The notes: generated by a model from the letters alone, not told the origin. DNA of 63,962 nucleotides, filler included, from an uncultured bacterium (GCA_964609495.1; 6 parts of 6 records of this genome joined end to end with filler, not necessarily neighbours in it), one strand, 5' to 3'. Positions 28,276 to 53,570 are shown, counted from the first letter of the whole stretch. Translations and numbers: made by a program.

Positions 28276-31200
28276 TCACCCTTCCCTTATTCTCTTCCTT
28301 CTATCTTTAACATAAACGCTTCCTTTTAGCGTCTTGGCATAAGTCTCCAATTCAGCGGCTACTTGAGAGATTTGAGATAAGTTTTTCAAATCATACTTCT
28401 CATTCGTCACTACCGCTATGGAAATGCTTATTATCGGGAACTGCCTTATCTTACCATCCCTATCCTCGGTGATGATATATCCGTTTTTTTGATCCTCCTC
28501 GCGGTAGTGATGAGGGATCAGCTCATCAAATACCTCTATTATCCGGGAGCAGATATTGTCTGCTTTATCTGGGGTAGTTATCAGTGCAAAGTCATCCCCT
28601 CCTATATGACCCACAAAATCGCCTTTACCTCCGTATTCCACTAATGCAGAAGTGATGATGCTCGCTGTCTGGCGAATCACCCCATCACCTTTAGCATAAC
28701 CATATTTATTATTAAAAGCTTTAAAACTATCTATATCGAGGTAACAGACCGCGAACTTGTTCCCGCTCTTGATCCTCCTATTGATCTCGCGTTCGACAGC
28801 GATATTCCCAGGTAGCTTTGTCAGAGGATTGGCATGCAATCCCTCTTGAGTGCGGCGGATGATCATCTCTACTCTCGCTCCTAATTCGGTAGTTCCAGAG
28901 GATTTGGTAAAATAATCATCCGCTCCTATCTTCATCGCTCTCACCTTATCCTCTATGCTCTCCTTTGACGTCAACATCACTATCGGAATATGACGGGTGG
29001 AGGCACTCTCCTTCAGCTTCTTACATACCTCATAGCCATTCATCCCCGGCATCATGATATCGAGCAGGATCAGATCGGGTTGTTCTTGATGAACTATATT
29101 TAAGGCCTCTACCCCACTATAAGCGACTCTATTCTCATAGCCAAGATTATCAAAAGTTATCTTAATAATTTTGGCTATAGAGGGGTTATCATCAACTATC
29201 AAGATCTTGCCCTTCTTGGTTTTTCCCTTGCTCTCAAAGATAGCGCGCGTGGTATCACTCAAGACCCTTCGCTCAATTGGTTTCAATAGATATCCTACTA
29301 CACCCAGTTGGAAAGCCCTATCTCTCTTGTCTATTTCAGATACCACGAGGATCGGTATATCTTTAGTCTGAGGGTCATGCTTTAGAACCTCTATAATTTG
29401 CAATCCATCCATCTCAGGCATCAGGATATCCAGGATGATCAGATCGGGTTGGGACTTTCGAGCCATCGCGATCGTCCCCCAACTATTTAAGGCTTCTATA
29501 ACTTCAAAGCCCTCCCCCTCCAACTGAACCTTAGTTGCGCGTCTGGCATTCGGCTCATTATCCGCTATCAAGATAGTTTTATCGGGTATAGGAATAGGAA
29601 CCTTTATTGTTGTATCCTCATCCTCATAAATCTCCAATTCAGGAGAGGATAGTGCTATCTCAGCTTCAGAACTTTCGATCTCTGCCGATCTGAAAGCCAA
29701 TTCAATCAAACCTTTCTCGGAGGATACCGCCTTCTCTATAGGTAGGATAAGGATGAACTTATTCCTCTTTCCACTCTCTTGTTCTGCCCAGAGTTTGCCT
29801 CCTTGTTGCTCCACTATACTTCTTAAAAGAGGAAGATCTTTTCTAAATCTAGTTACCCTGTCAAATTCGCCCTGAGTCCCCTCGAATATCTTTTTAATAT
29901 GCTCTTCTGGTATCATCTCTCCTGTGTCAGAGATACTGATCTCGACATAATACCTGCTCTTTCGGGCGCTTATAGTTATCCTTCCTCCCGAAGGAGTGGC
30001 TCTGAAGCTATTACTCAGCAAGCCGTTTAAGACCCGTTGAAGTCTCTTTCTATCCCCAGATATCTTGGGAAGATCGGAGGGAATTAGAACTCCCAAATTT
30101 ATATCTTTTTGGATCGCTTGGGATTGGAAGGAATAGGCAACGGAACGAATCAGAGGGGCTATATCTCCCCTCCAAGCCTTCTGTAAAGGCGCCAACAACT
30201 CGCTTATCACAGCATTAATACGTTCGCTCTCTTCAGCGATTATGGATAGAAATTTCCTCTGTTCCGCAAGCTCCATTTCGGAGATATCCTTAGTAAGTAT
30301 CTCGACTGCTCCTCTAATCGCGGTCAGAGGAGATCTCAGCTTATGAGAGATCTCTATCGGAACACTTGAATCCCTGACTTCTCTAGTGTTGTTATCCTTC
30401 TCTTTAATAAACATCAACACTCCGGAATAGTATCCTCCCCTATCTTCTAAGGGAAATAGCTCCAGATTCAACTCTTTATCCTTTGTCCAGATCGGTAGTT
30501 CTCTCACCTTTTTTTGTGCTATACCGCTTTCTGAATACTTCTTTAATAACTCCAGTAGATGACCAGAAGCCTCTAAAGGCACACAATCCCATATATTATT
30601 GGATAATGCTCGCTCTTTATCCAACCCCAGCAATTCCTCGGCAGATTTATTGAGGGTAAGAACTTGATTGTTAGAATCTCCTATAACTATTCCTGCTCCC
30701 AGATAGGCGATTATCTCCTCCCACTCAGGAGATCGAGGATAAACTTGGATAGTTCTATCCGCGATACTGGATGGCTCCTCATAATCCATAAGTGCTTCTA
30801 TTTGTAATTCAAAATGGTACTCATCCCTATCTCCAAATCTTATCCTATCTCCGTTATCCAATACCTTTCGCTTTATGGCTTGATTGTTCACCCAAGTGCC
30901 GTTGGAACTATTAAGATCGTATAGGACAAAGTGGTTATATTGATGCATAAGCAAGGCATGCCAGCGGGAGATAGTGGGATCAACAAGGACTATGTGATTG
31001 CTGATATCTCTACCGATAATGGTTAGTTCTTCATTGAGGGGGAACATCTTACTTGTTCCCATCTCTTCCGATTGAATCAGAAGTGCAGGCGCATCTTGAA
31101 AAAGAAATAATCTTTTGTCCTCTCTGCTTATTTCTCTCTCTTCCTCCTGCTTCTCTTCGCCCTCCTCTTCTTCCTCCTGCCGAGCCTCTTTTTTCCCCCC

Positions 31201-31608
31201 TTCCCGTTGGACATATCTTAGCCTAGCGGAGTTATATCCTAAAGAGATCAAATCTCCATCTGATAATCTCTCTCTTTTTATCCTCACCGCATTGAGAAAA
31301 GTACCGTTGGCACTGTTCTGATCGATTATAAAAAAGCTACCATTTTTAAATATTATCTTAGCATGACGCCTAGAAATACATTTGCTTTTGAAGATTATAT
31401 CATTATCATCTCGACGACCTAGATTGATAACTGGCTTATTCAGGGGGAGCTCCCTAACTGAACTCCTACCATTCTCTACCACTATCTTGGCTTTCAATCT
31501 CTCGATCTCAGTCAAATCTACCGGTTCAAAGATATCGCTTTCCTCGGTTATTCTCCTGCCTAAAAGCCTATTAGTTATTAATGTTACCTTTTTCCCTAGG
31601 AGCTTCAT
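28276..31608 (-). CDS. Hybrid signalling protein: FHA-FHA-PAS-HisKA-HATPase-REC-REC-GGDEF
   Basis: Two GR...SRxH...SxNGT FHA motifs; SHKLRSPL; DTG; two LDIxMP receivers; GHIGGDDF. Confidence 0.88.
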   Translation of the reverse strand: MKLLGKKVTLITNRLLGRRITEESDIFEPVDLTEIERLKAKIVVENGRSSVRELPLNKPVINLGRRDDNDIIFKSKCISRRHAKIIFKNGSFFIIDQNSANGTFLNAVRIKRERLSDGDLISLGYNSARLRYVQREGGKKEARQEEEEEGEEKQEEEREISREDKRLFLFQDAPALLIQSEEMGTSKMFPLNEELTIIGRDISNHIVLVDPTISRWHALLMHQYNHFVLYDLNSSNGTWVNNQAIKRKVLDNGDRIRFGDRDEYHFELQIEALMDYEEPSSIADRTIQVYPRSPEWEEIIAYLGAGIVIGDSNNQVLTLNKSAEELLGLDKERALSNNIWDCVPLEASGHLLELLKKYSESGIAQKKVRELPIWTKDKELNLELFPLEDRGGYYSGVLMFIKEKDNNTREVRDSSVPIEISHKLRSPLTAIRGAVEILTKDISEMELAEQRKFLSIIAEESERINAVISELLAPLQKAWRGDIAPLIRSVAYSFQSQAIQKDINLGVLIPSDLPKISGDRKRLQRVLNGLLSNSFRATPSGGRITISARKSRYYVEISISDTGEMIPEEHIKKIFEGTQGEFDRVTRFRKDLPLLRSIVEQQGGKLWAEQESGKRNKFILILPIEKAVSSEKGLIELAFRSAEIESSEAEIALSSPELEIYEDEDTTIKVPIPIPDKTILIADNEPNARRATKVQLEGEGFEVIEALNSWGTIAMARKSQPDLIILDILMPEMDGLQIIEVLKHDPQTKDIPILVVSEIDKRDRAFQLGVVGYLLKPIERRVLSDTTRAIFESKGKTKKGKILIVDDNPSIAKIIKITFDNLGYENRVAYSGVEALNIVHQEQPDLILLDIMMPGMNGYEVCKKLKESASTRHIPIVMLTSKESIEDKVRAMKIGADDYFTKSSGTTELGARVEMIIRRTQEGLHANPLTKLPGNIAVEREINRRIKSGNKFAVCYLDIDSFKAFNNKYGYAKGDGVIRQTASIITSALVEYGGKGDFVGHIGGDDFALITTPDKADNICSRIIEVFDELIPHHYREEDQKNGYIITEDRDGKIRQFPIISISIAVVTNEKYDLKNLSQISQVAAELETYAKTLKGSVYVKDRRKRIREG

Positions 31609-31743
31609 CTTGCTTCACCTCTCTACCGCCTACTTTTTGAGAGATTTAATACCCCAAAGTTACATATCCAAAGTATTAGTCGCGATTTCTATCAGAAGTA
31701 AGCGTAATCCAATGTATAAATTATAAGGGGTAGAATGCAAATC

Positions 31744-32913
31744 CTAGATCAGTAACTCTTCGGCGAAGCTTGTTCCTGGACCGGGGTAATTCAGGTTCAG
31801 AATCTCGGCAACAGTTGCTCCTAGATCGGCAAAGGTCTCTCTAATACCTAGATCTACACCTCCCTTGATATGGGCTCCATAAACGAGGAGAGGCACATAT
31901 TCTCTGGAATGATCAGTGCTGGGGGTGGTGGGATCATTGCCATGATCGGCGGTGAGGATGAGCAGATCATCATCGCGCCGAATCCTTAATACCTCGACCA
32001 GATCGTGATCGAATTCCTCTAGGGCGGAGGCGTATCCCAACACATTATTCCGGTGTCCATAGAGCATATCGAAATCGACTAAGTTGGTGAAGATGATCCC
32101 CTTATCTATCTCCTCCATGAATTTGATCGTTTTTTCTATCCCATCGTGATTGTTTTTTATATGGACTGATTTAGTGAGTCCAGAGCCAGAGAAAATATCC
32201 TCTATCTTTCCCACCCCAGCGACCTCATAACCAGCCTCAGCCGCGAAGTTGAGGACGGTCCTTCGAGGTGGAGGAAGGGAGTAATCCTTTCTCCCTGCGG
32301 TGCGCTGGAAACTCCCCTTTTCCCCGATAAAAGGGCGAGCGATGATCCTGCCGACGGCGTGTTCTCCTCGCATTATATCTCTCGCTTGTTCGCACATCCA
32401 ATAGAGCTTCTCCACTGGGATAACGGATTCATGCGCGGCGACCTGAAAGACGCTATCGGCTGAAGTATAGACTATGGGGCGACCTGTCTCTATATGCTCT
32501 GCCCCTAGTTCCTCGATTATCACCGTTCCCGAGGCAGGTTTATTACCGAGCACTTTTCCGCCTATTCTCCTCTCGAAAGCCCTGATCACCTCCTCGGGGA
32601 AACCGTTGGGATAAGTGGGAAATGGCTTATCGAGGATGATTCCCATCATCTCCCAATGTCCAGTTGTCGTATCCTTACCTGGTGATCTTTCCGCCATCGA
32701 ACCATAAGCCGCGGAGGGGTTTTCCGAGGGAGGGATTCTAGCTAGAGGGATGATATTTCCCAACCCCATCTTTTGGAGGTTGGGAAGAGAGAAATTCTCC
32801 ACTTGCGAAGCTATATTCCCCAGGGTGTTACTTCCCTCATCTCCATAAAGCGAGGCATCGGGAAGCGCTCCGATCCCCACGCTATCCATTACTATTATGA
32901 TGACTCTTTTCAT
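31744..32913 (-). CDS. deoB: Phosphopentomutase
   Basis: [39 protein letters not shown]. Confidence 0.97.
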
Positions 32914-33511
32914 ACTCAACCAACTTCCCAAATATCTCCTTCACCTGATCTTCCGTTCTTTGAATGGAACCACTGTTATCCACCACAAAATCCGCATATT
33001 TGACCTTCTCGGAGAGGGGCAATTGAGAACTCAGCCGCGCTTGAGCTTCCTCTCTAGTCATATCTCTTCTCTCCAGCAACCTTTCGATCTGGGTATCCTC
33101 ATCAGCATATACCACAATTACTAAATCCACCTTATCCTGCCAATTTACCTCATAGAGCAAAGGTATATCTATAATGATTACCCCTCTGCCGTTATCAGCA
33201 TATTCTAATTCCTCGACCAATCGCCTGACCTCTTCATCTATACGAGGATGGGTCATTCCCTCAAGTTCTTTCCTGGCTTCGGGATCGGAGAAGATGATCT
33301 GAGCTAGCTTGCCCCGATTTATACTTCTATCCTCATTTAATATCCCTTCTCCCCAGCGAGCTACGATATCACGCCAAGCTGGTCGATCTGGCTCAACGAC
33401 CTTGCGAGCTAGCTGATCGGTATCGATCAAGTGGGCTCCTAGCTCCACTAACATCTGAGCCACAATGCTCTTTCCACTGGCGACTCCTCCCGTTAGCCCG
33501 ACTAGCAACAC
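32882..33511 (-). CDS. coaE: Dephospho-CoA kinase
   Basis: [32 protein letters not shown]. Confidence 0.96.
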
Positions 33512-33617
33512 TATAGTTCCTCCTGCTGTCTCCTTCCCAGATCATAAGGGAGCATTGCCCAGACTATAAACAATCCCGCGAAGATAAGGATTCGGTGTCA
33601 ACAGGTATATCAAATAT

Positions 33618-33646
33618 ATTATACTATAGGCATATAATATAGTCAA
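33618..33646 (-). promoter_or_regulatory. sigma70 promoter of the coaE-deoB operon
   Basis: TTGACT-17-TATAAT. Confidence 0.65.
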
Positions 33647-33662
33647 GAGAAGAATTAAGCGT

Positions 33663-33717
33663 GGATGCATATAAAATCTGGGATCTAAGATCTAATTTAC
33701 TTTGTATTACACCCTCC
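33663..33717. repeat. 55-bp end of a multicopy element shared with the window start
   Basis: 33663-33716 is the reverse complement of 1-54. Confidence 0.85.
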
Positions 33718-33817
33718 NNNNNNNNNNNNNNNNNNNNNNNNNNNNNNNNNNNNNNNNNNNNTTAATTAATTAANNNNNNNNNNNNNNNNNNNNNNNNNNN
33801 NNNNNNNNNNNNNNNNN
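33718..33817. other. Artificial contig linker
   Basis: N44-TTAATTAATTAA-N44. Confidence 0.99.
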
Positions 33818-34498
33818 TATTATAGGCGAAGAATCTCCTTCTCTAGGGACTTTTAGAGGACGATAGTAATCCCCCTCTATCTCGAAATCTTCCGCTGATA
33901 CATAAACATAGACGATAATATCCTTAGTAGCATCATCAGGTAGATCTAGGATCAACTGCTCTCCATGAGGACCGCTCCTCTTCATCCTTATAGCCACCTT
34001 CAGGGGAGATAGCTTCCCTAAGGTGACTTTACTCGGAAAGGATACATCGGTATAACGCATAACAGTCTTCGTGGGAACTCCCTCTTCTCCCATCTCATCT
34101 TCTCTCCGCCAACTTATCAGCTCATTTAGGTAGGCAGTTACAGTTTCACCATCTTTGATCTTTGGGATTTCTCCACCTATTACTCCAAGGGGATAATCAT
34201 CTTCTAAGACAGTCAATAATTCTCCAAATTCTTTAAATAGCTCAATTTCAGCTCTATCGATAGTCTCTGTTACAAGAAGCAATTCAGGAATATCTCTTAG
34301 ACGCTTATTATATAAGTTAAGCCCATCCTCATCCATAACTCTATCGAAGAGTTGGATAGGTATTACGGCGAAGCCTCCTCCTTCCAGCTCCACTATCAAA
34401 TAATCTATCTCCTTCTCAGCTTTATATATCGCGTTCTCGATCTCGCGGAAGGTGAATCTATCGGAGATGATGACGAAGTTTGTATTAAGCTCATTCAT
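33818..34498 (-). CDS. Hypothetical protein, 3' partial
   Basis: GGAGG SD, ORF open to the contig end; RYTDVSFP...LKVAIR beta-rich domain of unknown function. Confidence 0.7.
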
Positions 34499-34611
34499 AA
34501 GCTTCCCTCCTAATCCAAAAAAGGTTTACCACGAGAATGATCTTCACCGATAGGCATTTATCACTACTCGCAATAAACCATCTCCATTCCATAATTAATC
34601 TATGGGCAGAC

Positions 34612-35016
34612 TTATCCTTGCTCGGTTGTCTCCTCTGAAAGCAGTCCTCTCAGATATTCCAAAGCCAGTTTGATAAGCATTATCTCCGCATCGTATTGAA
34701 GCGACACCTTAGAGTAATAATTCTCAGGGACATCGCCAGCTTCATATTTCTCCTTTAAGCTCTCCCGGCAATACTCCAGCTCCTCCAGCATATCCTCCAA
34801 TTCTGGTATCGACATCTCGATGAGCATTCTATAGTATGCACTGAGTTCCTCAGGTATAGATAGAGAAGGGGCAATTGCGGCCTTTAAGCTTAGCTCATCA
34901 CATTGAAACAGTGGTTTTGGTAGATCTGGCTTTTTAATAGAAGGACAGCCAGAAAGCAGAATAGCTATTACTATACTTGCCACTAATATTATGCCCAGTT
35001 TGGAATTTATTCTCAT
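34612..35016 (-). CDS. Hypothetical lipoprotein
   Basis: Lipobox LLSGC; SD GGGGGTG. Confidence 0.75.
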   Translation of the reverse strand: MRINSKLGIILVASIVIAILLSGCPSIKKPDLPKPLFQCDELSLKAAIAPSLSIPEELSAYYRMLIEMSIPELEDMLEELEYCRESLKEKYEAGDVPENYYSKVSLQYDAEIMLIKLALEYLRGLLSEETTEQG

Positions 35017-35168
35017 TATCTTTTATCACCCCCCTTCTAAAGTATAATCCAGCCTATCTCCTTATATTATTATATACTATATTTTATTTTTTATCAACCT
35101 TTTTCTAGGTTATAATCTGATGGTGATCGCCAAAAGGGTTTATTCTTCGATGATTTTAGGGGGAGAGG

Positions 35169-35197
35169 TTGCAAAAGAGGGGCAAATATGGTAGAAT
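35169..35197 (+). promoter_or_regulatory. sigma70 promoter of the ATP-grasp gene
   Basis: TTGCAA-17-TAGAAT with extended TG. Confidence 0.55.
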
Positions 35198-35242
35198 AAA
35201 TTTAAGAGATTAAGGAGAAACATCAGAGGTGAGAATTTAACA

Positions 35243-36211
35243 TTGAAAATAGTCATAATCTATAATGAAGAAAAAATTAATATCGCTAAAGAAGAGATGT
35301 ATAGAATGGGGAAGCTAGATTATGAGCCATTAGTAGATATCAGAAGTGCTATAGAAGACGAGGGATATGAAGTTATTTTGATAGACGGTAATGACGATAT
35401 TATTTCCAAGATGAAGAGGGAAAAACCCGATCTTATATTCAACATCTTCGCGGGGACAAAAAGTTATATCCAATCCTATATCCCGATAGTATCGGAAATG
35501 CTGGGGATCCCTTTCACTGGCTCAGATGCCCTTACTCACTCTCTAGCTTTAAATAAAGCTTTTACTAATGAGATATTGATGAGCGAGGGAATACCAATAC
35601 CTGGTTTCATCTCGGCGAAGGATCTGAACTACGATCTTCCTTCATCCCTATCCTTTCCTTTAATCGTGAAGCCATGTCGAGGCGGCTCAAGCAAAGGAAT
35701 AACTAAGGACTCGTTGGTCAATTCGGCAGAGCTACTAGAGCCTGCTATCAGCAGGATACTATCTCTCGGTGATGAAGCCCTTATCTCCGAATTTATTGCG
35801 GGGCGAGAGTTAACGATAGGAATAATAGGAAATGATGATCCCGTAATTATGCCTATTTTGGAGACTGACTTCACCTCCTCGTCGGTGGATTTTTTCACCG
35901 ATGAGTTTAAGGATGAGGTTGGCTACTGGACATCCCATACTTCCGTAGCCGTCCTATCTGCCCAGGAGGAAAATGCAGTTAAGGATAGTGCCCTGCGAAC
36001 CTATAGGGCGCTTGGATGTCTAGATTATGGTAGAGTCGATATTCGTCTGGGGAGCGATGGATCGGCTTATGTGATAGACTTCAATTCTCTACCGGGCATT
36101 TATCCTCAGTATAGCGCCTTTTCCAGAATAGCCGAAGAAGCGGGATGGAACTTTAAGGATTTCATTGTTAAAATATTAGAATGCACTCTCCAAAGATATG
36201 CTCTCGCCTAG
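35243..36211 (+). CDS. D-Ala-D-Ala-ligase-like ATP-grasp enzyme (non-canonical Ddl)
   Basis: GIPFTGSD, PLIVKP..GGSSKGI, EFIAGRELT, YGRVDIR, NSLPG; lacks the GG.S.E...S N-terminal motif of true Ddl. Confidence 0.85.
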   Translation: MKIVIIYNEEKINIAKEEMYRMGKLDYEPLVDIRSAIEDEGYEVILIDGNDDIISKMKREKPDLIFNIFAGTKSYIQSYIPIVSEMLGIPFTGSDALTHSLALNKAFTNEILMSEGIPIPGFISAKDLNYDLPSSLSFPLIVKPCRGGSSKGITKDSLVNSAELLEPAISRILSLGDEALISEFIAGRELTIGIIGNDDPVIMPILETDFTSSSVDFFTDEFKDEVGYWTSHTSVAVLSAQEENAVKDSALRTYRALGCLDYGRVDIRLGSDGSAYVIDFNSLPGIYPQYSAFSRIAEEAGWNFKDFIVKILECTLQRYALA

Positions 36212-36407
36212 CTTAAATGAAGACATATTAACTCTCCTGATGATATAGCCGAAGGACTATCTCAACTAATCTGAGCACTTAATTCCCCACTCCTCTCTCT
36301 TTCCTTAGAAGAGGAGAGATATCCGATAGATCAAAAACTAAACTTATCACCTTTTTTCTCTACTCAGAGGGTGACTTTTATCTTTGTATATAAAGGAGGT
36401 ATATTTT

Positions 36408-37499
36408 ATGGTCGAAAAGAAAGATCTGAAATTTGCGGTGCTTGGTGCTGGGCATGGAGGGAAAGCTATGGCGGCTCATTTAGCTATAAAAGGATTCTCA
36501 GTTAATTTATTCAACCGCACCTGGGATAGAATAAGACCCATAGCTCTTAGAGGAGGGATAGGACTAAGCGGAGAGATAGAGGGATATGGCAAGCTTAATT
36601 TAGTCACCTCCAATATGGAGGAGGTGATCAAGGGGGTGGATGTAATTATGGTTGTCGTTCCTGCTACTGGACATAGATATATGGCTGAACAAAGCGCCCC
36701 CTATCTCCAGGATGGACAGATAGTTCTCCTCAATCCTGGTAGGACAGGAGGGGCTTTGGAGTTCTCCAAAGTCCTGAAGGATATGGAAGTTGCGGCGGAT
36801 GTCATCATCTCGGAGGCGCAGACCTTCATCTACGCTAGCCGCAGTATGGGGCCAGCCGATGCGAAGATCTTCCGGATAAAGAACACTGTCCCTGTAGCGG
36901 CTCTGCCAGCTACTAAAACCCAAAAAGCTTTAGAGAGCATAAATAAAGCTTATCCTCAATTCATCCCTGCGGATAGCGTATTACAGACTAGCCTGGATAA
37001 TATGGGAACGATATTTCATCCCTGCTTGACGATCCTCAACTCCGCTCGCATCGAATCTACCCGCGGGAACTTTCAATATTACATCGAGGGAGTGACTCCA
37101 ACGGTAGCTCATATCCTCGAGGTTGTGGATAGAGAACGGATGACGGTAGCGGCCGCTTTAGGGGTAAGAGCTACCTCAGCGGTTGAATGGTTGGAAATGG
37201 CTTATAATGCTACTGGTTCTAATCTCTTCGAGGCTATTCAAAGTAATCCGGGCTATCGTGGGATCAGCGCTCCTCGCAGTCTGGAAAATCGCTATCTTCT
37301 TGAAGATGTGCCAGCGAGTTTAGTCCCCATCGCCTCTTTAGGGAAGAGCTTCGGAGTCTCCACTCCCACTATTGATACCTTTATTCACTTAGCTTCTCTT
37401 CTTCATCGGAGTGACTATTGGGAGGTAGGGAGAACAGTGAAAACTTTAGGGTTAGAGGGATTGACCGTAGATGAGATTCAGAAATTGGTTCATGGTTGA
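36408..37499 (+). CDS. NAD(P)-dependent opine (octopine/nopaline) dehydrogenase family protein
   Basis: GAGHGG Rossmann motif, LNPGRTGG, N...HP, RYLLEDVP; SD AAGGAGGT before ATG 36408. Confidence 0.9.
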   Translation: MVEKKDLKFAVLGAGHGGKAMAAHLAIKGFSVNLFNRTWDRIRPIALRGGIGLSGEIEGYGKLNLVTSNMEEVIKGVDVIMVVVPATGHRYMAEQSAPYLQDGQIVLLNPGRTGGALEFSKVLKDMEVAADVIISEAQTFIYASRSMGPADAKIFRIKNTVPVAALPATKTQKALESINKAYPQFIPADSVLQTSLDNMGTIFHPCLTILNSARIESTRGNFQYYIEGVTPTVAHILEVVDRERMTVAAALGVRATSAVEWLEMAYNATGSNLFEAIQSNPGYRGISAPRSLENRYLLEDVPASLVPIASLGKSFGVSTPTIDTFIHLASLLHRSDYWEVGRTVKTLGLEGLTVDEIQKLVHG

Positions 37500-39148
37500 T
37501 CAGCGATCCTCTTCCAAATTTGCTCAATTCTCTCTTCCTCACTCAAAATATCTCTACTTTGAGGATCTACTGCATAGCAAGCTCCATCTATTATATCGGT
37601 TACTAGATCACCTCTAGTATCCTCACTGGGCAGGAGTTGAGGGGCATCTAGAAATCCCAAGCGGACAGCTTTAGCCAGAGTGGGAGGATCGATAAGAGGA
37701 TCTCCTACATCTCTCCCTAAAGTCCTGATAGCATCTATAAGCACTAAGGCTTCCTTCTTCAGTTGCTCTTTTCTCTCTTGAATCTTAGGATCCGAAGTCA
37801 TATCGGGAAGGCCGTAGATGGCGTTTTCGATAACTTTCCTAGTGATACGGCAACTCTCCATTACATCGCTGGGAGTAGCGGCATGATCCGCCTCTGAATA
37901 ACTCACCACATGAACTATCTCTGGATCAAGTGCCATCTGAAGCATTGTGGAGGAAGCTAGTTGTCCCTTAGCCATATCCAGATCGACTGGATAGCTGAGT
38001 AATCCAGTTCTCGTTTCTCGATGAACTCGAAAATCACTATCTTGTAACTCCTCGACCAATTCTACACAAGCCAGCATCTTGGCTAGATCCATCGGAAACG
38101 ATATTCCCGCGGGAGTATTGAACATATATTGGGAGATGTAATCTTTGATCCTCATCTTCTTAGCATTATAGGCGCTTATATATGCCGAGGCGACGAAGAT
38201 GGTATCGTGAGCGCTGCGCAAGGACCAATGATGAGGCTCATTTAGTTCCACAGGTATATCCCGTTCGGCATGCCACTTCATAACCTCTTGGTGAACCTTG
38301 ATCGATTCCTCCAAGCCCATAGGGCCTCTTCCATCTATAACGTTGAACCAGAAGATAGGGACCGCGGAGAAGCAGATGTTTATAGTATCCACGTAAACTT
38401 GGGCGAGCTTCAACAGATCATCGGTGCCAGCATAAGTTCTCATCAAGGGGAAATTCCCACCGCGAGAGGCTTCATATAGAGCGCGAAAGTCATCGGGGGT
38501 GCGAACGGGGACTCCTCCTGCTCCTTTTCGCCTCGGATCTTGCCTCTCTGGATGAAGGAAGTTCTCCTGAGCATCTTGATCGGTTCCCAGAGAGATTATA
38601 TCTAGCACTCTAGCCTCGGCTATCTCCTTTACTCCCTTGATGGTATCCTCCAGCGAGGGGAGTCCGAAATGATGACGGATCACGGGGAAGGGCTTCTTTT
38701 GAGCGATACGCTCGAGGAGGGTATGGGCGTAATCCTCCTCTTCTGCACTGCCGGGTTCTCTTCCTTGCAGAAAGGCGATGACATCTTCTACCGGCTCTTG
38801 GCCCCCAAATACTGCCTCGAAGAAGTTTAGCTCTCTAGCAACAGCGGCAACTGGCTCTGTTCCCCCAAAGGCATATTTTCTATCCCTCAATCCAGCCTCT
38901 TGAACGCTGGCAACTAATTCCTTCAACAGCGGTTCAGCGGTCTCCGGGGTCAATCTATAGCTCACGGCAACTATATCTGGATTTGCCTCCCTTATCGCTC
39001 CGATCAATTCCTTTATCGGAACAGCCGGTCCTAGGAAAGCTGTTTTATATCCCTGTTGTTCGGCTAAGCGAAGAAAGGATAATACTCCCGCTACGTGAAC
39101 GCATTCCCCTAGTGATGCTCCCAATATGCTTTTAGTTTTAGAAGACAT
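37490..39148 (-). CDS. Single-chain cobalamin-dependent enzyme: N-terminal B12-binding domain plus glutamate-mutase-E-like barrel; substrate unknown
   Basis: GECVHVAG (DxHxxG variant), VAVSYRL, AFGGT; C-terminal motifs align by eye with GlmE. Confidence 0.8.
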   Translation of the reverse strand: MSSKTKSILGASLGECVHVAGVLSFLRLAEQQGYKTAFLGPAVPIKELIGAIREANPDIVAVSYRLTPETAEPLLKELVASVQEAGLRDRKYAFGGTEPVAAVARELNFFEAVFGGQEPVEDVIAFLQGREPGSAEEEDYAHTLLERIAQKKPFPVIRHHFGLPSLEDTIKGVKEIAEARVLDIISLGTDQDAQENFLHPERQDPRRKGAGGVPVRTPDDFRALYEASRGGNFPLMRTYAGTDDLLKLAQVYVDTINICFSAVPIFWFNVIDGRGPMGLEESIKVHQEVMKWHAERDIPVELNEPHHWSLRSAHDTIFVASAYISAYNAKKMRIKDYISQYMFNTPAGISFPMDLAKMLACVELVEELQDSDFRVHRETRTGLLSYPVDLDMAKGQLASSTMLQMALDPEIVHVVSYSEADHAATPSDVMESCRITRKVIENAIYGLPDMTSDPKIQERKEQLKKEALVLIDAIRTLGRDVGDPLIDPPTLAKAVRLGFLDAPQLLPSEDTRGDLVTDIIDGACYAVDPQSRDILSEEERIEQIWKRIADQP

Positions 39149-39163
39149 GATATATACACCTCG

Positions 39164-40564
39164 TTATGATAATTCCTCAACATATTTCTTCATCATCCGT
39201 AAAGCGGAGAGCGGATAGATCGTGCTTAGCAAACCCATCGCCCAAAGTATATATCTCTTATCTATCAAGAGCTTTGCCGCTTTTGGTTTCAAAAGCCATG
39301 GCTCATCCTCGGAGGCAATAGCCTCCTCTAATATTCGAGCAGGCTCTTTGCTATGGGCGAATATTCCCCCCGTCCCAATTATATGTTCAATATCCGATAG
39401 ATCCTTTCCCCTTTGAATAAAGATAGTTCCTGTTTCCACAGATACCTCCTCTAAAGTTCCTACGTGTCTATCCACGGCAAGTTTAACCGCAGATCTGCTC
39501 ATTCCCAGGTCGATAGCGATCTTTTCAGGATCAGTGGGGATCATTCCTACCTCCTCAGCTAACTGTTCAACGTAATCTCTCAGATCGAAGCTCAGCTCCT
39601 TCAAACTGCTCTTAGCTAAGATCATCTCCTCCCCCGTGGCTTCTAAGAGCGTAGGAGCGCTGACGCGCAACCCCAGATCGCCCTCTACTGTCCGCTGGGC
39701 ATAAGGATCGGGAAGACCTCGCTTTATAACCTTTGTCTTAGTGGGTTTCCCCTTAGCTATCGAATGAACATCGGTGGTAGCTCCTCCTAGGTCAACAGTT
39801 AGCAATTCTCCTATCCCTTTCCCCTCCCCGACTCCATCTGCCAAAAGCTGGACTGCTTTCAAAACCGCGGTTGGAGTGGGCATTAAAATATCATCTATCA
39901 TTCCTTCAACCTTAGCTATCCCCTTGGCATAGATGATATTCTCCATAAATAGCTGACGGATCACTTCCTTAACCGGTTCGATATTCAACCTCCCCAGTTC
40001 AGGAAGGACATTATCCGTTATCTTGCTCTCTTTGTTATGCTCCCTCAATATTCCCTCGATCTCATCCCTTGCCTCCTTATTCCCGGCGACGATGATGGGA
40101 GAAACTATATTCGTGTGGGCTAAAGCTTCGGCATTATGAACTACCGTCTCCCGATCTCCCCCATCCGTCCCTCCAGTTAGGAGAATAATATCTGGGGAGA
40201 TATTCGTTATCTCCTCGATCTCCTTGGAGGTAAGCTTATAGGAGAAGGTCTTCAATACTTTAGCTCCTGCTCCTAAAGCCGCTCTCTTAGCCGCCTCAAC
40301 AGTGAAGTCTGGAACTAGACCGATAGCGATCATTCTCAATCCACCAGCGGCGCTGCTACAGGCTAATTTAAATTCGAAATCATCCTCAGATATCCCTTCT
40401 AACTTCGCTAAGGCCTCTTGATAGCCGAGGGTGATATCTGTCTCGACGGTGGTGGAGGCTTGAGTATCAGCTACTATTGTTTCCCTATCTACGTCGATCG
40501 CTACTAGCTTAGTGAAGGTACTCCCGAAATCGATCAAAAGGCCATAGCTTTTTTTCTTCTCCAT
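39164..40564 (-). CDS. glmL: Glutamate mutase accessory/reactivating protein GlmL (MutL-type, ASKHA fold)
   Basis: DFGSTFTK, CSSAAGGL, LLTGGTDGG, MPTP, DLGGATTDVHS, RTVEGDLG. Confidence 0.92.
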   Translation of the reverse strand: MEKKKSYGLLIDFGSTFTKLVAIDVDRETIVADTQASTTVETDITLGYQEALAKLEGISEDDFEFKLACSSAAGGLRMIAIGLVPDFTVEAAKRAALGAGAKVLKTFSYKLTSKEIEEITNISPDIILLTGGTDGGDRETVVHNAEALAHTNIVSPIIVAGNKEARDEIEGILREHNKESKITDNVLPELGRLNIEPVKEVIRQLFMENIIYAKGIAKVEGMIDDILMPTPTAVLKAVQLLADGVGEGKGIGELLTVDLGGATTDVHSIAKGKPTKTKVIKRGLPDPYAQRTVEGDLGLRVSAPTLLEATGEEMILAKSSLKELSFDLRDYVEQLAEEVGMIPTDPEKIAIDLGMSRSAVKLAVDRHVGTLEEVSVETGTIFIQRGKDLSDIEHIIGTGGIFAHSKEPARILEEAIASEDEPWLLKPKAAKLLIDKRYILWAMGLLSTIYPLSALRMMKKYVEELS

Positions 40565-40683
40565 TCTCGAATCACCGCAATATCAAAGATTTCGTTCGAA
40601 GCTATGATGAGTCTAATTTCTCTTTAGATTCTAAGAGAAAACTGCTCTTTTGTCAACAATTTTGGAGATTTTTATAAGAAGTT

Positions 40684-40764
40684 GGCTTGAAGCCCTCTAT
40701 CCTTCAGAGTGGAGGATTGATTTGCCAAAAAATACTTGACAAATTGAACATTTTTGTCTATAAC
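40684..40764 (+). mobile_element. IS605-end-like hairpin plus sigma70 promoter cassette, copy 2, upstream of mnmG
   Basis: GGCTTGAAGCCCTCTATCCTTCAGAGTGGAGGATTGATTTGCCAAAAAATAC-TTGACA-17-TATAAC. Confidence 0.7.
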
Positions 40765-40825
40765 TAAAGTATGAGGAAGACTATACAAAAAAACCCCTTC
40801 TAGATATACTGAGGCTGGAGAGATT

Positions 40826-42703
40826 ATGGAAAATTATGATGTGATAGTCGTTGGAGCAGGACATGCCGGATGTGAGTCTGCTCTAGCCGCAGCTCGAATA
40901 GGATGTCGAACTCTGATGTTGACTTTGAATATAGAGAATGTGGCGTTGATGCCTTGTAATCCCTCGATTGGGGGACCTGCTAAAGGACATCTGGTGCGGG
41001 AGATCGATGCTCTTGGCGGGGAGATAGGGGTCAACATAGATAAAACCCTGATTAATATTAGAATGCTTAACACCAGTAAAGGCCCTGCGGTTCGCGCCCT
41101 TCGTGCTCAAGCTGATAAGAAGCTCTATCAACATGAGATGAAGCGAGCCTTGATGCGTCAGGAAGGATTAGACTTAAAACAAGGACTAGTTACTGATATC
41201 ATAGCTCATAATGGTAAAGTGGAGGGGGTAAGAACGATAGCGGGAGATGAATATCGAGCGAAGACGGTAATAGTTACTACTGGGACTTTCCTGAATGGGC
41301 TGATCCATATCGGAGAGGTATCCTATCCCGCAGGAAGACAGGGTGAATTCCCCTCGATACATTTATCGGATAGTTTGAGGAAGCTGGGGTTGGAATTAGG
41401 GAGGTTGAAGACAGGCACAGTTCCTAGATTAGATGCTCGAACTATAGACTATTCTCGATTGAAGGAGCAGAGGGGCGATGAAGAGCCATTAAACTTCTCC
41501 TTTACCTCTCCTATCTATGAGAGAGAGCAGGTATCCTGCTGGCTGACTTACACCACAAAGGAGACTCGCGATATAATATTGCGCAATCTTCATCGCTCGC
41601 CTCTTTACGGAGGTAAGATCAAAGGGATCGGACCTCGTTACTGTCCATCTATTGAGGATAAGATCGTTCGTTTCGCTGACAAGGAAACTCATCATGCTTT
41701 TCTAGAACCAGAAGGGATAACGACTAATGAGGTATATTTACAAGGGATCGCCACCAGTCTGCCCGCAGATGTGCAACTGGATATGGTCCACTCGATAATA
41801 GGTTTGGAGAATGCGGAAATTATGCGGTGGGGATATGCGATAGAATATGATTTCGTATTTCCCACCCAGTTGAAGCCCACACTTGAGACTAAGAAGATCT
41901 CAGGTCTTTTCTTGGCTGGACAGGTAAATGGGACCTCGGGATATGAGGAGGCTGGTGGTCAGGGCATTATGGCGGGGATCAACGCCGCTCTGAAGGTTAG
42001 AAGGCAGGAGCCGTTGATCTTGGATAGATCTCAGGCCTATATCGGAGTTCTGATAGATGATCTAGTAACTAAGGGGACTAAAGAGCCTTATAGAATGTTC
42101 ACCTCTAGGGCGGAATATAGATTACTGCTTCGTCAGGATAACGCTGATCTTCGCCTAACTCCTATAGGATACAAGATAGGTCTTATTCCTAAGGAGAGAT
42201 ATCGCTTATTCTTGGAGAAGAGAGAGATACTGGAGAAACAACTAGATCGCTTAGGCAAGATATCCTTAAAGCCTGAGGAAGAGGTCCAATCCTCCTTACG
42301 CTCGGTGGGAAGTAGCGAGATAAGGCAAGCTGTCAGACTCTCGGAGCTACTGCGCAGACCTGAGATCAGCTATGAGTTGCTATCTAAAATCACCTCCGAG
42401 CTTCCTTCCCTACCGAGAGATATAATCGAGGAGTTGGAGATTCAAATTAAATATGATGGATACATAAAGCGAGAACTACAGCAGGTTGAACGCTTCAAGA
42501 AGCTAGAAAATAGGGGAATACCTGATGATATAGATTATGATGAGGTATATGGATTATCAACTGAAGCTAGGCAGAAGTTAAAAGCTATAAGACCGATATC
42601 GATAGGGCAAGCTCAACGCATATCTGGTATCAGCCCTTCCGATATATCTGTGCTGATGATATATTTAGAGCGGAGGAAGAGAAGTTCACAAAGCTATAAA
42701 TAA
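40826..42703 (+). CDS. mnmG: tRNA uridine 5-carboxymethylaminomethyl modification enzyme MnmG (GidA), full length
   Basis: [49 protein letters not shown]. Confidence 0.98.
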
Positions 42704-42786
42704 TATTTAGATATCAATTGGGATACAGAATAAGTATAACTCTACGAATGAATTTATAGATGACGATTAGGAAAATGGTGACACCT

Positions 42787-43161
42787 ATGGTTAAGCTGAA
42801 GCAACATAAGGTTATATTAGAAGGCAAAGCTCCGCGGGATAGAAGTATCAGGCTACGCCCTATGACTGAAGATGATTGGGATATTTTAGCCAAGTGGAAT
42901 AGCGATCCAGAGGTTCTTTACTACTCCGAAGGAGACGATGTTACTTCCTATACTCTTGAGGAAGTCCAGGAGATATATCGTTCAACATGTAAAAATGCAT
43001 TCTGTTTCATTATTGAGGTTGACGGCGAACCAATTGGAGAATGCTGGCTTCAGAAGATGAATCTTGAGAGAATTATCCAGGAGTATCCTGATTTAGATTG
43101 CCGTCGAATCGACTTGATGATTAAGGAGAAGTTCTTCGAGAAAAGAGATAAGGAACGATGA
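42787..43161 (+). pseudogene. GNAT (RimJ/AAC(6')-like) acetyltransferase, C-terminally truncated
   Basis: RLRPMTEDD...PIGECW...RIDLMI, then stops before the acetyl-CoA-binding R/QxxGxG motif. Confidence 0.6.
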
Positions 43162-43200
43162 AATGATAGCTTCATATGTCTTGGGAATATAAACAATAAA

Positions 43201-43233
43201 AATCATCGATCTCTTCGCCAGAGATCGATGATT
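43201..43233. terminator. Hairpin between convergent genes (probable bidirectional terminator)
   Basis: AATCATCGATCTCT-TCGCC-AGAGATCGATGATT perfect 14-bp stem. Confidence 0.75.
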
Positions 43234-43267
43234 AATAAGCAAAAGTGGCTAATTTACATCCCCTTTC

Positions 43268-43636
43268 TTACCAATAACAATCGGGAGGATCCACAATTGG
43301 ATAAGGATCGTAATACGGTGGATCTACAATTGGATAGGGACAGGGATCATCGTATATATATGGTGGTTCTACGATCGGGTGAGGATTGCATATAGGTGGC
43401 CTTTTAAATGGATAGGGAGCATGGTAGGGTGGCTCCACGATTGGATAGGGATAGCGTATACGATCTGGAGCTATGATTATTATTATCACGTACGGAGGGC
43501 GGCGATCATATATATCGATCGGACGCCTCTCATACGGCCTCCTGATGTAGATTCTTTGTGATGTCTCCTCTGCAAAAGCCAATGAGCAAGCCACTAATGT
43601 AAGAAGTGTTATCCCTAATATTAAGTATCTTTTCAT
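43268..43636 (-). CDS. Small secreted Pro/Tyr-rich repeat protein
   Basis: Signal peptide ending in AFA; four P-x-PIV(E/D)PP units. Confidence 0.75.
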   Translation of the reverse strand: MKRYLILGITLLTLVACSLAFAEETSQRIYIRRPYERRPIDIYDRRPPYVIIIIIAPDRIRYPYPIVEPPYHAPYPFKRPPICNPHPIVEPPYIYDDPCPYPIVDPPYYDPYPIVDPPDCYW

Positions 43637-43880
43637 CTTTAGATTCTCTCCTCATCAATAAGATTTTCTTAGCTATTACTTATAAGATTTGGAGAGCTAA
43701 AAGTTTCAACTAAATAGAAATTTGTCCTGGAGTTAGAGATATAAGATGAAAAAAAGAGCTGGGCGGCAAGTTGAAGGCTGGAACCAGTAGTATTTTCAAT
43801 TCTCAAGCGGAATTATCATTATTTCTACTATGGCTTACTTATCCCTCAGCCTGCCACTTATTGAACATTACGTCTAACAA

Positions 43881-44375
43881 TCAGGGTAGTGCTATTGATA
43901 TTGGGGTAGATTCGTTGTTGGTCTCGTTGCTTTCCTTTACCCTGCAATAATCGGGCATAGACTCGTCGCCACTGCAACTATCAGCGATAGCTTTCAAGGA
44001 AACGGTCACGTTATGTACCGTAGGGGAGAAGGTTACTTTTCCTTCGAAGGTCACGGTTGACCCTGAGTCCAACGCACCAGTTGTATAGGGATACCAAGTA
44101 TCACTTTGCCCTGGAACAGTGAAGGCAACTACGAAAGTGCCACCGGAGCCGGTGTATTTTGTGGCTACCTTGAAGATACCAGCTGACTCAGTACCTTGAT
44201 TCTTGACTATAACGCGGATAGGCACTTCAACACTGCCTGCAGGGTTTATAGTAACAGGGCCTGTGGTCACCAAGGTAGAAACCACCAAGTCTGGCAAATT
44301 TGTTTCCACATATATACAACTGGACATTGAAAGGATTATGCATACGGCAAACACAACTAATATATAGCGTTTTAT
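43881..44375 (-). CDS. CARDB/Ig-like lipoprotein; probable ATA start
   Basis: LPDLVV...V.VKNQG...ESNETNN CARDB motifs; AAGGAGGT SD 7 nt before ATA at 44375; signal ending in SMSSC. Confidence 0.75.
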   Translation of the reverse strand: MKRYILVVFAVCIILSMSSCIYVETNLPDLVVSTLVTTGPVTINPAGSVEVPIRVIVKNQGTESAGIFKVATKYTGSGGTFVVAFTVPGQSDTWYPYTTGALDSGSTVTFEGKVTFSPTVHNVTVSLKAIADSCSGDESMPDYCRVKESNETNNESTPISIALP

Positions 44376-44483
44376 ATTTTACACCTCCTTAAATAAAGAT
44401 ATATGCCTAATATTCTCAAGGCGATCAAGACATATCTTTCCTACAATTGAGACTCTTTAAGGTTGAGTAAAAGAGTCCGACAA

Positions 44484-44836
44484 TTAGGGTAGCGCTATTG
44501 ATATTGGGGTAGATTCGTTGTTGGTCTCGTTGCTTTCTTCTACCCTGCAATAGTCGGGCATAAACTCGTCGCCACTGCAGCTGTCGGCGATAGCTTTCAA
44601 GGAGACGGTCACATTATGTACCGTATAGTAGAAGGTTACTTTTCCTGCGAAGGTCACAGTTGCCCCTGAAGCCAGGGAAGTATTTGTAAAGGGATACCAG
44701 ACACTACTTTGCCCTGGAACAGTGAAGGCAACTACGAAAGTGCCATCGGGCCCAGTGTATTCTGTGGCTACCTTGAAGATTCCAGCTGAAGCAGTGCCCT
44801 GATTTTTGACTATGACGCGAATAGGTACTTCCACGG
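44484..44836 (-). CDS. CARDB-domain paralog, 5' partial
   Basis: Highly similar to 43881-44231; cut by contig end. Confidence 0.8.
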
Positions 44837-44936
44837 NNNNNNNNNNNNNNNNNNNNNNNNNNNNNNNNNNNNNNNNNNNNTTAATTAATTAANNNNNNNN
44901 NNNNNNNNNNNNNNNNNNNNNNNNNNNNNNNNNNNN
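44837..44936. other. Artificial contig linker
   Basis: N44-TTAATTAATTAA-N44. Confidence 0.99.
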
Positions 44937-45032
44937 CTTTATTCAGAATTTATCCATCTCGGATACGAATATCTATTTTCCCCTTCATCTCTATTATCCT
45001 AAAAATGGGGGGAAGTTTCAACTATTTTTGCC

Positions 45033-50612: not shown

Positions 50613-50954
50613 TTAGCTCGTTTTTTGAGGTAAGAAAAACCTCTGAGCTTTTAGAACGAAGATAGTTGCTCCCCCAACTATCACTTCGATTGGGTGGAAG
50701 GCATGGGTTCCAGTTGGCATAGTAGCGGGTAGGGGAAGGTCGATATATCTCTCTCGGGCATGGCAGGTCTCCCGAATTATGGATATAGCCTCATCTACTC
50801 GTTCCTCTTCTACACCGATGAGGATAGTGGTGTTACCTCCCCTTAGGAATCCTCCGGTGCTAGCCAATTTTGTGCACCGAATATTTCTCTCTGCCAACCT
50901 AAACAGGAGATTGGGCGAGTCTCGATCTTGCACTATCGCTATTAATAATCTCAC
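50613..50954 (-). CDS. darA: c-di-AMP receptor, PII-like (DarA/PstA/YaaQ)
   Basis: MRLLIAIVQDRD, TKLASTGGFLRGGNTT, VGGATIFV. Confidence 0.92.
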   Translation of the reverse strand: MRLLIAIVQDRDSPNLLFRLAERNIRCTKLASTGGFLRGGNTTILIGVEEERVDEAISIIRETCHARERYIDLPLPATMPTGTHAFHPIEVIVGGATIFVLKAQRFFLPQKTS

Positions 50955-51932: not shown

Positions 51933-52251
51933 TAGATGCAGATAGCCTAGGAGTTACTTCGACGATACCGATGTTTTGATCATCCTGCAACATCTCCAGA
52001 GATTCGAGGTCTCCGATCTGTCGGAGAAAACTTTTCAGATCCTCTTCACTCACCATCCAAGGCGCATATTCACCCTTACTGCGTTGAACGCTCTCCTTAT
52101 CTCGATAGGCCTTTAATTTGATGAATTCTCCTCTCTTTCCCTTTCTTATCCAGTTTCGAACCGTGGCGGGATCGATACATAATTTCTCCGCTATCTGCTC
52201 TGGAGTTAGATAGGTAGATATTCCTTTAGAGATAAAGGTGATGGGAGGCAT
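51886..52251 (-). CDS. HTH_17/MerR-like (excisionase-type) DNA-binding protein
   Basis: YLTPEQIAEKLCIDPATVRNWIRKG...W.V.EEDL..FL; AAGGAG SD before ATG 52251. Confidence 0.75.
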   Translation of the reverse strand: MPPITFISKGISTYLTPEQIAEKLCIDPATVRNWIRKGKRGEFIKLKAYRDKESVQRSKGEYAPWMVSEEDLKSFLRQIGDLESLEMLQDDQNIGIVEVTPRLSASIKEPSFRWISQVRSH

Positions 52252-52375
52252 ATTATCTGATCTCCTTTCTTTATTATAATCTGTAGGAGTGAAAGGAAGG
52301 AGGGGCTTATACATCCCCTCCTTAGTCAAATTAGGAGGGATTAAGAACTTAACAAGGGTGGTTGGGTAAGTGAGC

Positions 52376-53515: not shown

Positions 53516-53570
53516 ATATTCAGAGTTATTTTACAAAATGTTAATTTAATGAATCGTTCCTCCTACCTAC

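Follow-up and report, generated by a model that had tools for sequence, protein, structure and literature searches.

A candidate adenosylcobalamin isomerase module linked to opine dehydrogenase and amide-forming enzymes in an uncultured bacterium

The 63,962-nucleotide stretch analyzed here (the window; uncultured bacterium, GCA_964609495.1) carries at positions 35,243–40,564 four genes coding for a single-chain B12 enzyme, a GlmL/MutL-type accessory protein, an opine dehydrogenase (ODH) and a Ddl-family ATP-grasp ligase. We read the four genes as one module, with a probability of about 0.6, in which an adenosylcobalamin (AdoCbl)-dependent isomerase works with GlmL, the ODH and the ligase to build an amidated opine-type metabolite with an osmotic or potassium role. 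The B12 enzyme, a protein of 552 amino acids (aa), would be a radical isomerase of glutamate-mutase stock that combines the sigma and epsilon parts in one chain, binds cobalamin via His18 and opens the Co–C bond over a GlmE-like barrel. Its predicted substrate would not be plain glutamate but a compound that bears carboxylates and an amino group (or a secondary one), the candidates being an amino-dicarboxylate or an opine larger than glutamate. GlmL may act as a chaperone or reactivase of the B12 enzyme, and the ODH would make or cleave the C–N bond in the substrate or product of the mutase, an N-(carboxyalkyl) amino acid. The Ddl-like ligase would then add an amide bond, a step that could fall to AsnB or a RimK-like ligase in relatives, and the predicted product is a small, rearranged and amidated opine-type metabolite.

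Genes linked to the B12 enzyme

Our listing of open reading frames (ORFs) reproduced the two convergent gene pairs reported in a first-pass annotation of the window:

35243..36211, + strand: Ddl-family ATP-grasp ligase, 322 aa (Dala_Dala_lig_C, Pfam)
36384..37499, + strand: opine dehydrogenase, 371 aa (Octopine_DH, Pfam)
37490..39148, − strand: single-chain B12 enzyme, 552 aa (PF02310 plus a GlmE-like triosephosphate isomerase (TIM) barrel)
39164..40564, − strand: GlmL/MutL-type accessory protein, 466 aa (NF040745, MutL)

All four genes lie inside an N-free segment (33818–44836; 11,019 bases) and, as annotated, on one contig. The convergent odh and B12 genes share 10 bp (37490–37499), and glmL lies on the same strand as the B12 gene and 15 bases upstream of it. 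The absence of a second GlmE and of methylaspartase and ornithine/lysine aminomutase domains also holds among the 54 window ORFs of at least 100 aa that were scanned.

The ODH assignment is strong (Pfam Octopine_DH, 163.8 bits versus a cut-off of 30), and residues 13–367 of the protein align to the Arthrobacter enzyme 1bg6 (E 1.6e-85, 290 bits). The alignment matches the His-Pro of the active-site helix in both proteins ('fHPclTiLN' in the window ODH and 'mHPlpTLLN' in 1bg6), with the histidine being the one we take to be catalytic in 1bg6. To describe its linkage, we used the best 80 loci of 522 confirmed genomic relatives of the B12 gene, a sample of mostly Chloroflexota whose counts are therefore not independent. 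An ODH gene was found beside the B12 gene in 73 of these 80 loci with hidden Markov models (HMMs) and in 72 with tblastn. In the seven remaining loci the contig breaks off close to the B12 gene, at most 175 nt before it or 300 nt after it, and, because all of the misses are at contig edges, no locus shows a true absence of the ODH. Thus, homologs do co-localize with odh, an association on which the first-pass annotation had staked its proposal. A protein fragment (P0284) even runs from an ODH C-terminus (42% identity to the window ODH, E 4e-22) in frame into the mutase. This fusion and another described below (P0265) are single cluster representatives from a representative library and were seen at the protein level. 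Separately, one locus (L022) has an S-adenosylmethionine riboswitch directly downstream of the ODH gene (7277–7382), presumably for the next gene.

The accessory protein of the window scores well above the NCBIfam cut-off for the methylaspartate mutase accessory protein GlmL (NF040745, 621.9 bits versus 475) and matches the Pfam MutL family (570.2 bits). Kronen et al. (2015) describe MutL/GlmL as a chaperone involved in glutamate mutase reactivation. In a 17-row tree, the window GlmL groups with GlmL proteins encoded next to an ODH or fused mutase in Armatimonadota (support 98/95) and Sumerlaeota (89/91), and apart from the GlmL of the canonical glmS-L-E operon of a Sumerlaeota genome, the one canonical sequence in the tree. 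Other GlmL-grade matches in 40 carrier genomes were beside an ODH gene in one Armatimonadota genome or beside ornithine-aminomutase-like genes. Most of the MutL-family matches in carrier genomes (32 of 40 over the cut-off) belong to a distant subfamily of approximately 585 aa or are OraE-associated, and these were not counted as GlmL. The Chloroflexota protein of approximately 585 aa has a gene context unrelated to the module, being encoded in a conserved four-gene row (L104–L110; e.g., L106, 5239–11303), and its row partners (approximately 855, 224, and 351 aa) matched no Pfam family.

The first-pass annotation had linked odh, the mutase and GlmL and ranked the ligase below this link. The near-universal odh supports its first part. 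The GlmL part is strong only through a sister subfamily in which GlmL is fused to the mutase (see below), and adjacency of the two genes is rare in the sampled loci (4/80). For the ligase, the ranking is reversed in this subfamily, since amide-forming enzymes are encoded in 35 of the 80 loci. An AsnB gene is present in 25 loci and a Ddl-like ligase gene in 11, and both occur together only once, hence they look like alternative solutions to one step. One representative AsnB is above the NCBI cut-off for asparagine synthase B (523 versus 499 bits). Furthermore, one relative (P0265) has the mutase fused to a RimK/GshB-like ATP-grasp domain, which is not Ddl-like and had no similarity to the window ligase by BLASTP.

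The ligase of the window matches Dala_Dala_lig_C (Pfam, 116.5 bits) and scores under every NCBIfam Ddl cut-off (best, NF002378, 164 bits versus 243). By sequence, it is probably a dedicated paralogue rather than a housekeeping D-Ala-D-Ala ligase. Its alignments begin at approximately residue 33 and, for this reason, the true start may be downstream of the TTG at 35243. In two Sumerlaeota genomes, the best match to the window ligase is the ligase encoded in the operon with the B12 gene (191 and 158 bits), above the other Ddl-like genes, and a Poribacteria relative has a separate true Ddl over the cut-off (350 bits). These results bear on an alternative explanation, namely that the functional unit comprises only odh, the B12 gene and glmL, and that the gene for the Ddl-like ligase serves the cell wall and is a chance neighbor. 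The low number of loci with Ddl-like genes is consistent with such a coincidence, as are the MurJ gene on the next contig segment and the adjoining ligase of the Poribacteria-type relatives, which is not the best match to the window ligase. However, the scores under every Ddl cut-off, the best matches inside riboswitch-controlled Sumerlaeota operons, the near-exclusive occurrence of AsnB and Ddl-like genes and the existence of a mutase-ATP-grasp fusion all point to a dedicated ligase and make a chance neighbor unlikely.

c-di-AMP signaling and the direction of the pathway

The Sumerlaeota relatives provide a physiological lead for the module. All four of their loci have a cyclic di-AMP (c-di-AMP) riboswitch (RF00379; 100–108 bits versus a cut-off of 38) directly before the operon, followed by the genes for the ODH, the ligase, a 4HBT hotdog thioesterase, GlmL and the B12 enzyme. 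These operons contain, therefore, the four genes of the window plus one, the thioesterase. A scan of 18 other loci found no RF00379. A second link to c-di-AMP is the receptor domain CdAMP_rec (PF06153), which is encoded in 9 of the 80 loci. For example, tandem DarA-like genes lie between the AsnB and B12 genes in L070, a CdAMP_rec gene comes right after the ODH gene in L051, and the domain is fused to Na+/H+ exchangers encoded just downstream in L048, L055, L065 and L074. In three of the five genomes checked, every copy of CdAMP_rec lies in or beside the operon (2/2 in G032, 2/2 in G041 and 3/3 in G025).

Other genes near the B12 gene code for Na+/Ca2+ exchangers, TrkA-domain Na+/H+ exchangers, CitMHS transporters and a CBS protein, and a gene for a small DUF5698-DUF2179 membrane protein is present in 16 of the 80 loci. 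Because relatives appear to switch synthesis on via c-di-AMP signaling, the product is probably a solute for osmotic or potassium balance. We also identified in the window a gene for a DarA/PstA-type c-di-AMP receptor (50613–50954, − strand; PF06153, 128 bits), which shows that the organism uses c-di-AMP signaling.

The first-pass annotation had proposed either a new fermentation route or a new opine-type metabolite serving as an osmolyte or metallophore. The osmolyte idea gains from the riboswitches and receptors encoded beside the relatives. The metallophore found no support and was set aside, as no nicotianamine-synthase-like or metal-regulator genes were seen, and nothing in this subfamily spoke for a fermentation route. 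A more specific proposal, which we advance as tentative and more doubtful than the module itself, is that the product is a new compatible solute or K+-balancing metabolite, an AdoCbl-rearranged and amidated opine under c-di-AMP control, and that a GlmL-fused sister subfamily follows the mirror-image catabolic route in other phyla. We also consider possible a simpler variant in which the ODH acts twice, so that a two-gene core isomerizes a 2-oxo acid via a transient opine with no net redox change.

The sister subfamily comprises long relatives (1207–1267 aa) that are mutase-GlmL fusions in 16 of 16 cases, with 33–40% identity. Cys16, His18 and all of the barrel residues described below are conserved in the fusions. 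In a sample of 69 metagenome loci (L112–L180; L103, 612–5970, is an example), 58 have an ODH-like gene directly upstream on the same strand and the remaining 11 begin inside the fusion gene; one of these ODH proteins is over the Pfam Octopine_DH cut-off. A gene for a CobA-type ATP:corrinoid adenosyltransferase follows the fusion gene in 14 of the 69 loci and is the most direct evidence at the sequence level for AdoCbl as the cofactor. The sister loci also encode a GntR regulator (33/69), ABC ATPases (27/69), a D-glutamate-cyclase-like protein (21/69), an OppC-type permease (15/69), a Peptidase_C26 hydrolase (14/69) and an amidohydrolase (11/69). A D-glutamate-cyclase-like gene was seen once in the 80 main loci, inside an operon of B12, cyclase-like, AsnB and ODH genes (L049).

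These neighbors raise the alternative that the module of the window is catabolic, with an imported opine or peptide-like compound being cleaved by the ODH and its skeleton rearranged by the mutase for assimilation. Opine dehydrogenases are reversible, and genes for a family-5 solute-binding protein and permease flank three to four of the 80 main loci, which, like the regulator, peptide/opine ABC importer parts, Peptidase_C26, amidohydrolase and cyclase-like genes of the sister subfamily, would fit such a role. Yet the companions in the main loci are ATP-consuming amide formers (35/80) rather than hydrolases, HMMs for GntR, C26 and amidohydrolase match none of the 80, and the contig of the cluster has neither an importer nor a regulator. 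Together with the c-di-AMP riboswitch and receptor links, which fit the synthesis of a solute, this evidence leaves a catabolic role here quite unlikely. Amide-forming companions in one subfamily and hydrolyzing or importing companions in the other suggest instead, as a working hypothesis, paired pathways by which one class of metabolites is made and broken down.

Chemistry of the B12 enzyme

The 552-aa protein has an N-terminal B12-binding domain (PF02310, residues 7–118; 42.5 bits versus a Pfam cut-off of 32.1) followed by a region that only weakly resembles GlmE in sequence. Met_asp_mut_E (PF06368) matches residues 385–516 below the Pfam cut-off (22.5 versus 26.6 bits), the GlmE model TIGR01503 had no match in the NCBIfam scan and a sequence search of the PDB returned matches confined to the cobalamin domain. 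A second weak PF06368 match, in genome G003, proved to be a methylmalonyl-CoA mutase. The resemblance is clearer in the fold. An AlphaFold2 (AF2) model built with 37 homologs in the alignment is confident (predicted local distance difference test 89.7; predicted template modeling score 0.88), and Foldseek places GlmE first (1cb7_B, E 1.3e-16), followed to approximately E 1e-5 almost entirely by AdoCbl isomerases. Structural alignment with VIA-align agrees with this ranking: GlmE 1cb7_B has a Z score of 32.5 (root mean square deviation 3.1 Å, 377 residues aligned), followed by lysine 5,6-aminomutase (30.4), ornithine aminomutase (27.4) and methylmalonyl-CoA mutase (approximately 21), with the isolated cobalamin domains 2yxb, 4jgi and 1y80 at 15–16.

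To compare active sites, we aligned with hhalign the family profile to a GlmE profile built from the GlmE of a canonical operon in a Sumerlaeota genome (P0121) and 23 homologs. The alignment covers family residues 121–541 and GlmE residues 35–445 (probability 75.9%, E 2.3e-5); with one GlmE sequence in place of the profile, hhalign gave no useful result (probability 1.3%), and the profile-profile run alone worked. In C. cochlearium GlmE, we take Arg66, Arg100 and Arg149 to form the substrate 'arginine claw', Glu171 to bind the amino group, Tyr181 to contact the substrate and Glu330 to contact the adenosyl ribose. This numbering fits P0121, the one GlmE sequence checked, at +3 for the substrate residues. 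The profile alignment gives the following correspondences:

GlmE Arg66 (substrate arginine): family His160, with Arg158 two residues earlier
GlmE Arg100 (substrate arginine): family Gln194
GlmE Arg149 (substrate arginine): family Tyr239, with Arg237 two residues earlier
GlmE Glu171 (amino-group binding): family Asp272
GlmE Tyr181 loop (substrate contact): deleted in the family
GlmE Glu330 (adenosyl-ribose contact): family Glu419

The family residues at the mapped positions, together with Arg158 and Arg237, are invariant in 37 of 37 members. The retention of Asp272 and Glu419 suggests that the framework for adenosyl-radical chemistry and for amino-group binding was kept, and the remaining changes indicate that the carboxylate-binding pocket was rebuilt and probably enlarged. 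The cobalamin motif is also unusual, reading CVHVAG (Cys16 to Gly21; CxHxxG) in place of the canonical DxHxxG. His18 and Gly21 are present in all 37 members and position 16 is a cysteine in 27, an aspartate in nine and a glycine in one. The cysteine is, therefore, common and not universal in the alignment, and the 76 ORFs recovered from the loci read GEC[VA]HVAG in 70 cases and GEDAHVAG in three. The first-pass annotation had proposed an AdoCbl-dependent rearrangement of a non-glutamate amino acid or opine. The fold, the rebuilt active site and the gene linkage agree with it, none of the three outcomes that it had named as refuting was observed, and the chemistry itself is unproven.

The family is large: clustering at 90% identity yields at least 7,911 clusters, the set of representatives at 50% identity contains 195 members (E up to 1e-30), and the closest relatives of the window protein (67–71% identity) are labeled Poribacteria and Armatimonadota. 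We also observed a third branch of longer proteins (P0301 and approximately 20 further representatives; approximately 600–636 aa, 33–38% identity) in which the N-terminal region is extended. The one sequence read from it, P0301, has the canonical DxHxxG motif.

The similarities to GlmE raise the question of whether the protein is simply a fused glutamate mutase converting L-glutamate to 3-methylaspartate, with the ODH and ligase acting downstream on the latter. GlmE is indeed the best fold match, GlmL exceeds the NCBI equivalog cut-off, an acidic residue is retained at the amino-binding position and the true AsnB encoded beside relatives could use an aspartate analogue. However, the whole family lacks the Tyr181 loop and has other residues in place of two of the three substrate arginines, Met_asp_mut_E stays under its cut-off and methylaspartase was found neither on the contig of the cluster nor in the 80 loci. 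Furthermore, a Sumerlaeota genome (G001) has a canonical glmS-glmL-glmE-methylaspartase operon and, on a different contig, the fused enzyme together with an ODH, a ligase and a GlmL paralogue of its own. The presence of both in one genome argues that the module is not a plain glutamate mutase, and Anoxybacter fermentans has GlmE and a family member as well. We consequently regard the simple conversion of glutamate, which the first-pass annotation had named among the outcomes that would refute its proposal, as improbable.

A smaller chance still goes to a pyridoxal 5'-phosphate (PLP)- and AdoCbl-dependent aminomutase making a beta- or shifted amino acid. Lysine 5,6- and ornithine 4,5-aminomutase are close behind GlmE in the structural alignment, the B12 domain has weak NCBIfam matches to OraE and the lysine aminomutase beta subunit, and GlmL relatives also serve ornithine aminomutase. 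Beta-amino acids are, in addition, known osmolytes. The alignment is nonetheless longer for GlmE (377 versus 333–339 residues), which is also the only match among the Pfam and profile models, and the cobalamin domain has no invariant lysine. Lys35, which in an approximate alignment falls roughly opposite what we take to be the PLP-binding lysine of OraE, is not conserved.

Last, the idea from database names such as 'methionine synthase' that the protein belongs to a methyltransferase system as its corrinoid (methylcobalamin) component draws on the best sequence matches of the B12 domain (MtgC, MtbC and 4jgi) and on URO-D-family genes (MtaA-type fold) that adjoin the B12 gene (L004, 2047–3060) and the ODH-GlmL genes (L099, 1904–3016) in one Armatimonadota genome and occur in the window on another contig segment (47728–48792, − strand), and is hardly credible given that the Rossmann domain begins at residue 7 with no Pfam match to a helical cap domain ahead of it, corrinoid-protein models of the MtaC/MtbC/MtgC type score 17–34 bits versus NCBIfam cut-offs of 215–450, the 400-residue barrel matches AdoCbl isomerases, GlmL is adjacent or fused, the sister subfamily has an adenosyltransferase gene, the ribose-contacting glutamate is kept and URO-D adjacency is limited to two of the 80 loci. 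The URO-D protein of the window is 31% identical to one of those encoded in this Armatimonadota genome.

Several observations weigh against the reading of the four genes as one biosynthetic module. No c-di-AMP riboswitch was found at the window cluster (Rfam at E up to 1, positions 30000–46000), and no CdAMP_rec gene is on its contig, the sole copy in the window being on another segment. GlmL adjoins the B12 gene in only four loci, all of them Sumerlaeota, and in most Chloroflexota carriers the sole MutL-like protein is distant and encoded elsewhere in the genome, which indicates that GlmL is not generally required; Chloroflexota also dominate the linkage counts. The Ddl-like genes of the closest relatives (L001 and L002) are not the best matches to the window ligase in those genomes, as might be expected of an unrelated neighbor. 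The catabolic look of the sister neighborhoods (GntR, ABC importer and hydrolases) implies that this subfamily could be catabolic too. For the B12 enzyme itself, the residue mapping rests on an alignment of moderate probability and on GlmE numbers checked against one GlmE sequence, the motif aspartate is replaced by cysteine in the window protein and in 27 of the 37 aligned members, and the sequence matches of the B12 domain favor methyltransferase corrinoid proteins. Domains and folds, linkage, gene fusions and regulatory elements were observed here, and from them we infer the cofactor form, the substrate class, the product, the biosynthetic direction and the physiological role.

The window at large and comparison with known systems

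The window has paired runs of 44 N approximately every 11 kb (11255–11354, 22539–22638, 33718–33817, 44837–44936 and 55810–55909), and the segments between them shrink from 11,254 to 10,873 bases. The N runs indicate that the window is a string of contigs, apparently from one assembly and sorted by size, and distances across them are meaningless. Rfam returned no RNA element of any kind between 30000 and 46000 at E up to 1, and a scan for promoters and terminators was no richer than shuffled sequences (12 versus 10.2 and three versus 6.4 sites, respectively). Other segments code for a 1,110-aa hybrid signaling protein with two FHA domains, a PAS domain, a histidine kinase, two receiver domains and GGDEF (28276–31608, − strand) and contain a small phage-like patch (51333–54247), which encodes several helix-turn-helix regulators and a Phage_rep_O replication protein.

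To our knowledge, only about a dozen AdoCbl isomerase reactions are known, and a further one, if true, would appreciably extend B12 enzymology. The family stands out for its wide distribution, its unusual Cys-His cobalamin motif and its obligatory ODH partner. The c-di-AMP riboswitches and receptors and the cation antiporters give it a concrete physiological handle, and suggest the production of a new stress metabolite by many uncultured Chloroflexota, Sumerlaeota and Poribacteria. Fused and unfused forms, cultured carriers and candidate substrates make the question directly testable. Among the carriers, A. fermentans has a family member (P0120), and the gene pair is also present in Roseiflexus-type Chloroflexota.

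Our literature search found no assay of this B12 family (subscription journals and supplements were outside its reach). It found no work joining opine dehydrogenase with glutamate mutase, or c-di-AMP with either, and only unrelated work on AdoCbl with opines or on opine dehydrogenase with cobalamin. Among characterized systems, the closest to the B12 enzyme is glutamate mutase GlmS/GlmE with GlmL (EC 5.4.99.1; C. cochlearium, 1cb7 and 6h9e). Both have a Rossmann cobalamin domain and a TIM barrel of the same fold, an acidic residue at the amino site, a glutamate at the adenosyl-ribose site and an adjacent GlmL gene. Unlike glutamate mutase, the enzyme of the window is one chain instead of two subunits and has CxHxxG instead of DxHxxG. 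It also has His, Gln and Tyr at the positions of Arg66, Arg100 and Arg149, with new invariant arginines nearby, lacks the Tyr181 loop and is partnered by an opine dehydrogenase rather than methylaspartase. The window ODH, in turn, aligns end to end with the N-(1-D-carboxyethyl)-L-norvaline dehydrogenase of Arthrobacter sp. 1C (1bg6).

The predicted logic of the pathway recalls that of the osmolyte N-acetylglutaminylglutamine amide (NAGGN), which is made with the Ngg ATP-grasp ligase and the AsnO amidotransferase. NAGGN is also a stress-induced solute derived from glutamate-family amino acids with an ATP-grasp ligase and an AsnB-type amidotransferase. The likeness is in logic only, as NAGGN is made without a B12 enzyme or an opine dehydrogenase, and the AsnB encoded beside relatives is below the cut-off of the N-acetylglutaminylglutamine amidotransferase model (242 versus 570 bits).

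The first-pass annotation had called the pathway undescribed, a claim that does not hold for the family as such. Zhang, Rodionov, Gelfand and Gladyshev (BMC Genomics, 2009; PMC2667541) predicted a novel B12-dependent family from 11 genomes, which always adjoins an octopine/nopaline dehydrogenase gene and has Ddl and AsnB genes nearby. Their paper places the TIM barrel N-terminally, connects the family with neither glutamate mutase nor GlmL nor c-di-AMP and assigns no function. The N-terminal, distant B12 domain, the adjacent ODH gene and the Ddl and AsnB genes in the vicinity mark the same family as the one described here. The module of the window is thus a genuine member of a known but uncharacterized family, and one with a physiological lead that can be tested.

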